Below are positions 1,054-60,978 of a stretch of DNA of 64,000 bases, one piece after another; positions within the stretch are counted from its first letter, which is position 1, and the number at the start of each line of letters is the position of its first letter. Origin of the DNA: Scenedesmus sp. PABB004 (lineage: Eukaryota); NCBI GenBank assembly GCA_014905635.1, contig JABVCE010000014.1:62001-126000 (forward strand), in the 5' to 3' direction. The notes beneath the pieces are model-generated. The model did not search any database. It was not told the DNA's origin and saw nothing but the letters and a program-made list of their open reading frames with translations. The position numbers and the translations under genes were made by a program.

Positions 1054-4000
1054 GGCGTGGTGGGGCACGAGTACTTCCACAAGTGAGTAGCTGCTGCCGG
1101 GCCGGCCCAAACCCGCCAGCCCAGCCCTGACGGCCCACCGCAGCCGCGCGGCCGCCGCGGGGCAGCTCGCGCCGGTGCCGCGCCCCGACGCTGTCCCCCG
1201 CCGTCCCCGCCGCCGCCGCTCACGCCGCGCCGCGCGCCGCACGCGCGCCCGCCGTAGCTGGACCGGCAACCGCGTGACGTGCCGCGACTGGTTCCAACTC
1301 ACGCTCAAGGTCAGGCAGGGGCGGCCCCCGGCCCGCCGCCCGCCGCGCCGCACCCCCCCCCCTGCCCCGCCGGCCTCGCCGCCGCTGCCGCCGCCCGACG
1401 CGCGCCGCCGCCGCCCCCCGCCGCGCGCCCGCCGTGCCGCCGCGCAGGAGGGCCTGACCGTGTTCCGGGACCAGGGCTTCAGCGCCGACATGAACAGCAG
1501 GGCCGTGAAGCGCATCGAGGTGCGCGCGGCAGCGCGCCGCGGGAGCAGCGGGGGGCCGCGGCGGCGCGGCAGGGCGGCGCGCGGGCGGTGTGCGCGCGCC
1601 GAGGCCGCTCCCTCCCTGCACGCGCGGCGCGCCGCGCCGCGCGCGCGCCCACCCGCTCCTCGCTCCCGCCCTTCCTCCCTCACCCGCGCGCACGCCAGGA
1701 CGTCGCGGTGCTGCGCGCGAGCCAGTTCAGCGAGGACGCGGGGCCCATGGCGCACCCGATCCGCCCCGACAGCTACATCAAGATGGACAACTTTTACACA
1801 GTCACAGTCTACGAGAAGGTGCGTGCGCGCGCGTGTGCCTGTGTGACTGTGCGTGCCTGTGTTTGTGTGCGTGTGTGTGCCTGTGTGCGTGCCTGTGTGC
1901 CTGTGTGTGTCCGCGCGCCCGCGCCTGCGCGTGCCTGTGTGCGTGCGTGCGTGCGTGCGCGCGTGCGCGCGTCGGTGCCTCGCGCGCTGCGCCGCGCCGG
2001 GCCGCGCGCGGCGCAGCACGCAGCACTCAGCCCCGTGCGCAGCACGGGGCTGAGTGCTGCGTGCTGCGTCGCGCGTCGCCCGGCGCGCCCACACCCCGCA
2101 CGCCCGCGCCCGCACCCGCGCCCGCGCCCACGCACATACACACCTGCCCACGCACCCCACTGCCCACTCACCCGCCCGCCGCCCACCCGTACAAGGGCGC
2201 TGAGATCATCCGCCTGTACCACACGCTGCTGGGGCCCGAGGGCTTCCGCAAGGGCATGGACCTGTACTTCAAGCGACACGACGGACAGGCGCGTGGGGCT
2301 GGGCGCGGCTGACTGGGCGCTGCTGCGGCGCTGACTGCGCAGCTGGCTGCCTGTGTGTGGCGCCGCCTGTGCGGCTGCGTGTGCGGCGGCTGCGTGGGAC
2401 GGCGGGGTTGTTTGACTCGCGGGCGAGCCCCTCGCCCCCGGCGCCGCGCGGCCCCGCCCTGCCCTCACTCTCGCACTCTCACACACACACCACGCGCCGA
2501 CACCGTCACCCCAGGCGGTGACCTGCGACGACTTCCTGGCCGCCATGGCCGACGCCAACGGGCAGGACCTCTCCGGCGTGGCCGCGTGGTACGGCCAGGC
2601 CGGCACGCCCACGCTGACCGTGCGCGGCGCGTACGACGCCGCCAAGAAGACCTACACCATCACCACGCACCAGGTGCTGTCTCTCTCTCTCTCTGCGGCG
2701 CGCCGTGCCGCCGCAGCGCGTCCCTCGCCCGCCGCGCGCGCGTGGGTTCGCAGGCCCGCGCGGCTCGCCCGCGCGCCGCTGCGCCGCGCCGACCCCGTGC
2801 CGCGCCGACTCCCCTCGCGCGGCAGGTGACGCCGCCGACCAACGGCCAGCCGGACAAGGTCCCTGTGCTCATCCCGCTCAAGGTGGGGGCGCCAGCTCAG
2901 CTCGGCTCAGCTCAGCGCAGCTCGGCTCGCGAGCTCCGAGCGCCGCCGCGCCGTCCCGCTCACCCGGCGCGCCCCCGACGCCACCGACGCCGCCGCCACG
3001 CGCGCCCGCGCGCGCCAGGTGGGGCTGCTGGGCCCCGACGGCGCGGAGCTGCCGCTGCACCTCGAGGGCGTCGGCGGCGTGGGGAGCGAGACGGTGCTGC
3101 GCTGCGACGCGGCGACCAACACCTTCACCTTCACAGACGTGCCGGTGCGCGGCCGCGGGGCCCTGGTGGTGGGAGGACGGGGGCAGCGGGGCGAGTCCCA
3201 AGGGGAGGTCCAGCCAGCAGGGGGGTGACCACCGCGCCAGAACGGCGGCATCCGGGGCGGCGGCGGCGCCCCGCGCGGCGCACGCCGCCGTCGCCGCCTC
3301 CCGCCAGTCTTGCTGGGCGGCATGGCGACGGCGGCGTGAGCCGTGCGCGACGCGATGCGCGTGCGGCAGGGTTAGGGGCGGCGCGCGCGGCGCACGCCGC
3401 CGTCCGCCTTGCTCGTTGCAGCGTCTTGCGGGGCGGCACGGCGACGGCGGCGTGCGCCGCGCGCGGCGCCGGCGACCCCCAATGCACGCCCAGGGGGGCT
3501 CCATGCCCACCGCCCACGCGCGCGCACCCCCTCCTCCCCCGGTCCATCCGTCGTCGGCCGGCGCCCACCCACGCGCGCGCCGCGCCGCCGCCGCCGCCGT
3601 TCCGCCCCCGCCAACGCAGGTCGAGCCGGTGCCGAGCGTGCTGCGCGGCTTCAGCGCGCCGGTCAAGCTGGTGGTGGAGGGCCAGACCGACGAGCACCTG
3701 CGCCTCATGTTTGCAGCAGACTCAGACCCCTTCAACAGGCGCGCGGCGGCGCAGTGGCGGCGGCGCGGCCGCGGCGCTGCACGGCGCCGCCGCGCGGCGC
3801 GCGCCCGCCTCGCGCTCCCCCAGCCCTGAGCCCCCCGCGCCCGCCCCCGCCGCTCCCCCGCTGCGTCACCACGCGTTACAACAACAAAATAACAACAAAA
3901 TGACAACAAAACAACAGGTGGGAGGCGGGTCAGCGCCTCTACATGAAGCTGCTGCTCGACCTCTACGCCGCCGCGGCCAAGGGCCCCGCGTCGGCGCCGC

Positions 4001-58800: not shown

Positions 58801-60978
58801 GAGCGCCTTGGCCTCCACCAGCTCAGCGATGCGCTGCACCAGGTCCGACTGCGGCCAGCGGGGGCGCGGGCGGCGGCGCGGGGCGGCGGTGACGGGGAGC
58901 GGCTGCCCCGGCGCGCGCCAGGCGCAGCGCCAGCCTGCCGGTGCTGCTCAAGAGCCGCGGAGGCGCCTCGCGCACCTTGCACACTTGGTACGGCATCTCC
59001 GTGAACACCACGAGCGCCCGCCCGCCGCCCCCGCCGTCCGCGCCGGCCGCGGCGCCGCCGTCCTCCGCATCGGCGGGGGTCGCAGCCTTCTTGCCGCGCT
59101 TCTTCTTCGCGCCGCCGGCGCCGCCAGCACCGGCGGCGCCCTCGTGCTCGATGTGCGCCGTCGCGCGCAGCAGCACGGAGCCGTTGCCGGTGTCATACGC
59201 CGCGGCGGCCTCCGGCCCGACCAGCACCTCGCCGCCTGCGCGCCGCGCCGGCGGCGGCGGCGGCGGCCTCGGCCGCCGCCGCCGCTGTGCCGCGCAGCGT
59301 CGCGCGCGCTGCGCGCAGCCCCGAACTCCCGCGCACGCTGCGCCGAGCCCCAAACTCCCGCGCGTGCTTCCCCCGCGCGCCGCACCGGTCGGGAAGTCGG
59401 GCGCCGGCAGGTGGGCCATGAGTTCGGGCGTGGAGATGTCGGGCCGCGCCACGAGCGCGCGCAGCGCGGCGACGACCTCGCCGAGGTTGTGGGGCGGAAT
59501 CTTGGTCGCGATGCCGACGGCGATGCCCTGCGCGCCGTTGACCAGCAGGTGCGGCACGCGCGCCGGCAGCACGAGCGGCTCCTCCTGCGCGGCCGCGGCG
59601 GCGGCGGCGGCGGCGCGGCGGCGGCGGCCGCGGCTGGGCGACCGCCCCGCAGCACGCGCCGCCGCGGGCGCCGGCGCGCGCGCGGCAGAGGCAGGGCGGC
59701 AGGCCGCGGCGGGCCGCGGGCGGCAGGGCGGCGGGCCGCGGCGGCCGCACGCGCAGCGCGCGCCTGGGAGGCGTCAAAGGTGGTGCCAAAGTCCACCGTG
59801 TCCGCCTCGAGGTCCGACAGCAGCATGTCCTCCGACGCGGCCGCGAGGCGGCACTCCGTGTAGCGCATCGCCGCGGGCGGGTCGTCGTCGAGCGAACCAA
59901 AGTTGCCGTGCCCCGACACCTGCGCGCGCGCCGCCCGCGATTGGGCGGGCGCCGGCGATCGGCGCCGCGCGCGCCGGCGAGCCGCCCCCCCCCCCCCGGC
60001 GCCCGTGCGCCGGCGAGCTGTCCGCCCGCTGCGCCGCGCAGCCCGGGCCCTGCTGCCTCGGCGGCGCGGCGCGCACCAGTGGGAGGGACATGCTGAAGTC
60101 CTGCGCGAGGCGCACGAGCGCGTCGTACACCGCGGCGTCGCCGTGGGGGTGGTACTTGCCCAGCACCTCGCCCACCACGCGCGCGCACTTCTTGTAGGGC
60201 CGCCCGTGCGCGATGCCGAGGTCGTGCATCGCGTAGAGGATGCGGCGGTGCACCGGCTTGAGCCCGTCGCGCACGTCGGGCAGCGCGCGGCCGACAATCA
60301 CCGACATTGCGTACTGCGGCGCCGGCAGGGAGGGGCGGGCGCGGCGGCGCGGGGCGGGGCGGGCGCGAGGGCGGGAGGAGGGATGGAGGGTTTGACCGGC
60401 GGGCAACGGGCATGCGGGCGCGCGCGGATCGCGGCGCGGCGCGCCGCGCGCGGACGTTGCCGGGCGGCGCGGCGCCGCACCGCGAGGTACGACTCGGACG
60501 CCTCCTCGTGCAGCTCCTTCTCCTCGATGCGCTCCTCCACAACCGCCAGCGCCGCCACGCCGCGCTGCTCCCGGCCGCCGCCAGCCGCGGCGGCGGCTGC
60601 TGCGCTGCTCGCGCCGCGGCGGGCGTGCGGCGGCGCGCAGCGCGGCGCGGCCTGGCGCGCCAGCGCCGGCAGCCGCGGCGCGTGTCGCAGCGCCGCGCAG
60701 CTGCTGCGGGCCGCGCCGCCGCTGCTGCAGAGCGCCTGCGGGCGCGGCGCCGCGGGCGGGCGGGCGGGCGGTTGTGGCGCCGGCCGCTGCCGCTGGCAGC
60801 GCGCCCCGCCGCCGCTTTTGGCGGCGCCACCGCTGCCGGCAGCACCGGCGCCCCGGCTCCCCGCCACCCGGCTCGCCTGCAGCGCGGCGGCGCTTGCCGG
60901 GAGCCCGGCGACGCTGCCGCCGGCGCGGCGCGCGCCGCCGCCGAGCGCCGTTGTCGCTCTCATGGCGAGGCTCAGCAT
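55857..60978 (-). CDS. GYRA: DNA gyrase subunit A, organelle-targeted; multi-exon
   Basis: Transit-like N-terminus; [44 protein letters not shown] (catalytic Tyr), GyrA-box QRRGGKG and C-terminal beta-pinwheel repeats. Confidence 0.97.

Follow-up and report, generated by a model that had tools for sequence, protein, structure and literature searches.

The window analysed here is a 64,000-nucleotide (nt) stretch of DNA from the chlorophyte Scenedesmus sp. PABB004 (contig JABVCE010000014.1, positions 62,001 to 126,000 of the forward strand), and its genes contain many introns that begin with GC instead of GT and end with AG, the GC-AG introns with which this report is concerned. The assembly, GCA_014905635.1, is given as 39.8 Mb with 78.5% G+C and 7,092 genes in the part of PMC12571836 that we consulted. 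The window itself is 79.3% G+C, and its scarcity of stop codons leaves long open stretches in all six frames. When all 409 stop-to-stop frames of at least 100 residues were scanned with Pfam, many eukaryotic genes split into short exons were revealed. Those recognised are pepN, a DHHC protein, PRP17, a kinase, a CAP-Gly protein, DUF924, a VAMP, a cation exchanger, REX1-B, a hydrolase, gyrA and Vps18. An Rfam scan of the window returned no matches at the gathering score, and hence no small nuclear RNA (snRNA) gene in it.

A preliminary description of this DNA, made from its letters, had listed 19 positions at which the reading of conserved proteins seemed to need a donor of the form AG|GCGCG, the bar marking the exon-intron boundary. 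This heptamer is present on the appropriate strand at all 19 positions, 9 on the plus strand and 10 on the minus strand. For 15 of the 19 there is support from protein homology, and the other four are called from coding potential. Where the protein requires a junction the introns do, in the assembled sequence, begin with GC and end with AG. The abundance of the motif was also tried as evidence for GC donors and was rejected. AGGCGCG occurs 76 times on the two strands, where dinucleotide-preserving shuffles predict 106 ± 9, and for CAGGCGCG the count is 46 and the expectation 53 ± 7.5; the equivalent GT motif, AGGTGCG, exceeds its expectation at 47 against 19. Since AGGCGCG is not enriched, the case for the GC-AG junctions is made from protein homology.

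Junctions required by protein homology

Junctions were placed with a purpose-written protein-to-genome spliced aligner in which the permitted donor dinucleotides can be selected. Four orthologues per gene were used for gyrA, pepN and PRP17, and GC donors were penalised more than GT donors (28 versus 20). All 11 of the sites listed in these three genes were recovered, each by three or four of the four references.

The spliced alignments give gyrA 15 introns, four of which are GC-AG: 56586–56723, 56898–57024, 57685–57838 and 59585–59763, all on the minus strand. The donor at 56723 reads cag|GCGCGG and is placed by three of the four references; those at 57024, 57838 and 59763 read cag|GCGCGC and are placed by all four. 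The GT alternative scores 16 units lower at 56723, 30 units lower at 57024 and 54 to 64 units lower at 59763, where it loses 11 conserved residues, and at 57838 there is none within 45 nt. The part of pepN inside the window also has 15 introns, three of them GC-AG and each placed by all four references, at 2289–2514 (cag|GCGCGT, phase 0), 3739–3917 (cag|GCGCGC, phase 2) and 4929–5082 (cag|GCGCGC, phase 0) on the plus strand. No in-frame GT-AG alternative is present within 40 nt of the first and none for the third; at 3739 the best is 15 units lower and adds five residues.

Four of the 13 introns of PRP17, on the minus strand, are GC-AG, and they are identified here by the residue of the Tetradesmus protein that each follows. 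The intron after residue 247 (15696–15844, cag|GCGCGC) is placed by all four references, with a GT alternative 60 units lower. After residue 356 (15097–15233, cag|GCGCGG) the donor is placed by four references and the acceptor by three, and after residue 403 (14782–14955, cag|GCGCGC) three references agree; neither has a GT alternative. The intron after residue 443 (14546–14661, cag|GCGCGC) is placed by all four, the GT alternative being 21 units lower. A methyltransferase-like gene on the plus strand has four introns in its spliced alignments, two of them GC-AG. That at 25357–25436 (cag|GCGCGA) is placed by six of the seven references that reach it and has no GT alternative. The other, at 26107–26210 (cag|GCGCGG, phase 2), is placed by all six references that reach it, and its GT alternative is 44.5 units lower.

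Two further junctions are fixed by adjoining Pfam profile coordinates. In the VAMP/synaptobrevin gene the exons on either side of the intron at 29804–30024 (plus strand, gag|GCGCGG) meet at positions 46 and 47 of the Synaptobrevin profile, and this intron is in every run of the gene model described below in which GC donors were allowed. In the REX1-B gene the exons flanking 41623–41722 (plus strand, cag|GCGCGG) map to positions 2–53 and 54–88 of the DNA_repr_REX1B profile, a junction at 53|54. Homology support therefore comes from spliced alignment at 13 sites and from Pfam coordinates at two.

Are these true GC donors, or has a T been read as C in sequencing or assembly? Or, does splicing in fact take place at GT sites nearby? 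When every dinucleotide was allowed as donor and acceptor within about 40 nt, the GC-AG pair had the top score at 12 of the 13 aligned sites and came within 0.6 units of it at the thirteenth, 25357. An in-frame, stop-free GT-AG alternative is absent at six of the 13; at the other seven the best one is 15–64 BLOSUM units lower and brings insertions or deletions of 2–11 residues. Both explanations do have something in their favour. In-frame GT donors lie 42 nt downstream of 28225 and 18 nt downstream of 45969, two of the sites called from coding potential, and a frameshift in pepN may be an assembly indel. Against them stand the fifteen homology-fixed sites with one common context, the alignment scores above and the public gyrA model, which itself takes a GC-AG intron at 56723. 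We regard either explanation as extremely unlikely.

The pepN frameshift is a shift of 1 nt near 4549, in the exon at 4505–4703 (plus strand), where the reading passes from ...QLAQVLRP to ELTALVAAN... with a change of frame. The pepN orthologues read through this position without a break, and the shift is a true lesion or else an indel of the assembly. Because of it the spliced aligner first proposed a GC donor at 4356 (cgcgcc|GCCGCC), which was rejected as an artefact of the frameshift; the true intron is GT, at 4331–4504. A GC donor at 57551 in gyrA was likewise rejected, being lost once GC was penalised above GT and replaced by a GT donor at 57585.

The preliminary description had also warned that standard gene predictors would mis-annotate such genes, and the public annotation of gyrA bears this out. 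One gyrA exon of the window matches an NCBI protein of Scenedesmus sp. PABB004 (gyrA, 1499 residues; here P0001) with 100% identity, and when this protein is aligned to the window, 11 of the 15 gyrA introns found here prove to be used in it. Three of the four GC-AG introns are missed, with 56723 alone retained. At 59763 a GT donor is used instead and 11 conserved residues are deleted. At 57838 the model reads past the junction, translating intron sequence, and leaves by an odd GT donor downstream, and at 57024 it uses the donor gcg|GTCGCC at 56952 and again translates intron sequence. The same public model (53789–60963, minus strand) uses a donor at 55872 (caa|GTACGC) to skip the gyrA TGA that directly follows 55860, and so becomes fused to the downstream gene. 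A similar fusion of gyrA with the gene downstream was made by our own gene model.

Share of GC-AG introns in the window

To count introns over the whole window we used a two-strand hidden Markov gene model with three-periodic second-order coding statistics taken from 45 exons, together with donor and acceptor matrices. In hold-out runs the genes were left out one at a time, with a GC donor matrix copied from the GT matrix and altered at the +2 position alone. Recovery was exact for all 43 known introns, including 11 of 11 with GC donors, at the cost of two extra calls. Additionally, all four introns of the methyltransferase-like gene were predicted by the model before the reference proteins were fetched. 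With GT donors alone the model is 455 nats worse and misses 11 of the 43 known introns.

Over eight runs in which GC donors were allowed, the model predicts 148–162 introns in the window, of which 113–117 have GT donors. The set of AG|GCGCG donors is stable at 21 across runs, and all 19 of the listed sites are called at each prior from 0.25 to 0.01. The two extra calls in this set, at 43054–43112 and 53112–53170 on the plus strand, are 59-nt introns and doubtful, the shortest verified intron being 71 nt; one of the two comes after an exon of eight residues. About 19–21 GC donors among some 135 gives a GC share of about 14–16% for this single 64-kb window under a purpose-built model. The 15 homology-verified sites, set against the 148–162 predicted introns, give a floor of about 9–10%. 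The tally of the preliminary description, at least 17 of roughly 140 introns, agrees with these figures. Its statement that the frequency is far above the usual 1% or so also stands, with published values of 0.37–0.87% in model species and about 2.1% in Chlamydomonas for comparison.

Four of the 19 sites are probable GC-AG introns called by the coding-potential model, and banning each of them costs it between 6.7 and 9.7 nats. The intron at 28126–28225 (minus strand, cag|GCGCGC; 9.7 nats) is in a gene without a Pfam family match, and when it is banned the model falls back on the GT donor gcg|GTTGGC at 28183. At 45969–46078 (plus strand, aag|GCGCGC; 9.5 nats), in the alpha/beta-hydrolase gene, the fallback is ggc|GTGCTC at 45987. 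At 39281–39390 (minus strand, cag|GCGCGG; 8.4 nats), in the cation/Ca exchanger gene, the fallback is a different GC donor. The intron at 52884–53048 (plus strand, aag|GCGCGG; 6.7 nats), in an Ala-rich gene, is the weakest of the 19. Pfam searches with the exons flanking 25357, 26107, 28225, 39390, 45969 and 52884 gave no informative match. The exon after 45969, searched against PDB, gave a best E-value of 0.028, over residues 21–51 of the exon alone, which is too weak to place the junction.

Several points weigh against reading these sites as genuine and frequent GC-AG introns. The sites at 28225, 39390, 45969 and 52884 are without homology support, and the window-wide share of 14–16% depends on a gene model built for the purpose. 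That model also makes 14–27 GC calls outside the consensus, which come and go as its settings change and are likely to be false. Genes were picked for the homology work because they held claimed sites, so that their 13 GC-AG introns out of 47 overstate the share. In the spliced alignments decoy donors brought back much of the gain in score; CG raised it by 71, 100, 179 and 51 in the four genes, compared with 109, 127, 218 and 61 for GC. Since decoys raise the score too, the total gain is for the most part a sign that no usable GT donor is present in these introns, although GC beats the decoy dinucleotides in all four genes. Finally, the junctions have equivalent placements, seven of them with an identical product at 59763, and GC-AG was chosen among these by convention; it is the sole standard pair among them.

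Could the share then be inflated, with only the homology-verified sites real, a true share of a few percent and the rest artefacts of fitting in a sequence full of GC dinucleotides? The shortfall of AGGCGCG (76 against 106 expected), the 14–27 unstable calls outside the consensus and the 59-nt length of the extra calls at 43054 and 53112, below that of any verified intron, all point in this direction. Yet the 15 verified sites alone already amount to 9–10% of the 148–162 predicted introns, and the model was exact on 43 of 43 held-out introns. We consider inflation of this kind to be highly unlikely.

Donor context and recognition

Donor contexts were compared over 49 verified introns, 34 with GT and 15 with GC donors. 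The standard donor consensus is CAG|GTAAGT. The preliminary description had observed that the GC donors mirror the dominant GTGCG donor, and so they do: GCG at +3 to +5 is common to both classes and is present in all 15 GC donors. It had further held that these donors lack the compensating match expected of GC-AG introns, and here the comparison contradicts it. Of the 15 GC donors 14 follow an exon-terminal CAG and the remaining one a GAG; for GT donors the count of CAG is 6 of 34 (Fisher p = 7e-7). Taken singly, C at -3 is found in 14 of 15 versus 16 of 34 (Fisher p = 0.003) and A at -2 in 15 of 15 versus 17 of 34 (Fisher p = 7e-4), the latter as anticipated by its suggestion of a reliance on the exonic AG. 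Seen from the exon, 14 of the 20 verified donors that follow CAG are GC, and not one of the 28 verified donors whose exon end is other than AG. On average the two classes match CAG|GTAAGT equally well, at 5.00 positions for GC and 5.06 for GT. Within the intron, C stands at +4 in 27 of 34 GT and 15 of 15 GC donors, so that this side comes no closer to the U1 consensus. The GC donors thus appear to be compensated, and on the exon side (-3 to -1) only.

Intron length and G+C content are alike in the GC and GT classes. U12-type GC-AG donors have the motif GCATCC, according to the sections of PMC1557818 seen by us, and such a donor is excluded here by the GCG at +3 to +5 in 15 of 15. The same sections treat it as established that GC-AG introns compensate at the other positions of the donor.

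We give a probability of roughly 0.8 to the following reading: that these are ordinary U2-type introns with C at +2, about one in seven of the introns here, recognised by standard U1 with compensation on the exon side and of GC-biased origin. The pair missing at +2 would be offset on the exon side, and a GC donor would be tolerated only where the exon ends in (C)AG, which would bring the total U1 match to about that of the GT donors. On the intron side the two classes share GCG at +3 to +5. Both the pairing with U1 and the removal of the introns from RNA are inferred. As to origin, a GC-biased T-to-C substitution at +2 has most likely been kept at donors ending in CAG and purged elsewhere.

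The preliminary description proposed altered recognition, by a variant U1 or U6 snRNA or by reliance on the exonic AG. In a rival reading the 5' end of a variant U1 (or U6) would pair with GCGCG, and GC donors would be recognised directly and not just tolerated. The C at +4 in both classes (27 of 34 GT, 15 of 15 GC) is off the standard consensus and makes a shift in recognition conceivable. However, a variant U1 able to pair with C at +2 would need no extra pairing on the exon, yet CAG precedes 14 of 15 GC donors and 6 of 34 GT donors. In addition, GT is still the majority donor, at 113–117 against about 21. Given the strict CAG rule and the equal match to the consensus a variant U1 is unnecessary, and we think it improbable. 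Standard U1 recognition with exon-side compensation remains the reading that we prefer.

Other features of these genes were recorded along the way. Acceptors in the 49 verified introns follow (G)CAG|G, with C at -3 in 94% and G at +1 in 80%. The tract upstream of the acceptor is C-rich (43–69% C and 2–14% T) instead of T-rich. A branch-like C[TC][GC]AC is found in the last 55–8 nt of 27 of the 49 introns, compared with 5 of 40 interior windows of the same size. In gyrA, pepN and PRP17 the introns are 87% G+C and the exons 72%, with more C than G on the sense strand of the introns, and 96.4% of third codon positions in the exons are G or C.

Matching introns in relatives and other GC-rich algae

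A comparison with the matching introns of related algae, proposed in the preliminary description, was made for PRP17. A green-algal PRP17 alignment, used to scan metagenome contigs, detected 21 loci, and the Tetradesmus protein was aligned to 15 of them. The other six were left out as intron-less or very short matches, and several of the 15 are near-duplicates. These 15 loci are 45–63% G+C, and 3 of their 89 introns were called GC, one of them consensus-like; in the window the figure for PRP17 is 4 of 13. Six introns of the relatives, in loci of 50–63% G+C, fall at the GC positions of the window after residues 356, 403 and 443. Five of the six have GT donors, four of them cag|GT: those of loci L005 and L014 at residue 356, of L003 and L011 at residue 403, and of L003 at residue 443 (cag|GT). 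The sixth is a GC donor. At residue 403 the environmental green-algal contig L005, which is 60% G+C, reads cag|GCGCGT (3094–3358), and the junction there fits exactly. The same type of GC donor is therefore found outside this genome. Its presence in an unrelated contig, at a matching PRP17 intron position, also speaks against a T read as C, or splicing at nearby GT sites, in the window.

The intron after residue 247 (15696–15844, minus strand) is phase 0 with cag|GC in the window and phase 1 with agg|GT or aag|GT in L003, L006 and L011. At this shared intron position the boundary has apparently been displaced by 1 nt.

The pattern in the relatives fits T-to-C substitution at donors that already ended in CAG, the direction of change being one that we infer. 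The preliminary description had named GC pressure as the driver. The GT at five of six matching introns in relatives of lower G+C makes this plausible, and it is to that extent that the suggestion stands; as a cause, GC pressure is what the pattern suggests. A stricter version would have a threshold, with T-to-C at +2 nearly neutral after CAG and lethal to splicing elsewhere, giving about one GC-AG intron in seven across the genome. We rate the chances of such a rule as even.

How does this compare with what is known elsewhere? The sources cited in this and the next two paragraphs were each consulted in part. GC-AG introns make up 0.37–0.87% of introns in five model animals and plants, and species are said to switch often between GT-AG and GC-AG (PMC1557818). 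In animals and plants, as in the window, the remainder of a U2-type GC-AG donor is nearer to the U1 consensus, offsetting the mismatch at +2. There, however, the exon and the intron side both contribute to the compensation, whereas in the window it is on the exon side only and +4 stays C. Chlamydomonas reinhardtii is, like Scenedesmus, chlorophycean, and a table in PMC2846911 marks no U12 snRNAs for it. Its expressed sequence tags give 532 GC-AG against 25,053 GT-AG introns, about 2.1% (PMC2846911, table 2), in contrast to the 14–16% or so of the window.

Closer parallels come from other GC-rich algae. In Emiliania huxleyi GC is the majority donor, at 56–65%, in a genome of 65% G+C, and the authors credit the high GC (PMC4028052). 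The likeness is clear, in that both are GC-rich algae with frequent GC donors in which AG acceptors are kept and gene models based on GT-AG are often wrong. Unlike the window, where a chlorophyte has a minority of about 14–16% at 79% G+C, Emiliania is a haptophyte with a majority of GC donors at a G+C of 65%, and a CAG rule at the exon end is absent from the portion of the text examined (PMC4028052). In the pelagophytes Aureococcus anophagefferens and Pelagomonas calceolata, GC-AG introns are predicted at 14–17% and credited to high GC, and a relative of lower GC has 0.32% (bioRxiv 10.1101/2024.10.30.620910). Their predicted share is close to the one estimated for the window, but these are stramenopiles with 0.1–0.9 introns per gene, and their introns were predicted by annotation; in the window some 150 introns lie within 64 kb.

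The phenomenon is thus already known in GC-rich algae, and what is new here is its occurrence in a chlorophyte together with a strict rule for the exon end. Among the literature matches listed, some of which were judged by title or by the start of the abstract, none described frequent GC-AG introns for this strain or for any green alga. The window adds a chlorophyte to the haptophytes and pelagophytes in which high GC and GC-AG introns are linked. The dependence of GC donors on an exon that ends in (C)AG is in keeping with compensation by way of standard pairing with U1. For the annotation of this genome, predictors restricted to GT-AG err, and the low gene count (7,092 in 39.8 Mb, PMC12571836) may partly reflect such errors. 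If what is seen in the window holds genome-wide, about one in seven introns would be GC-AG, to our knowledge the highest share yet reported for green plants and algae. The genome of Scenedesmus sp. PABB004 would then be a natural titration of the minimum U1 pairing that a donor requires.

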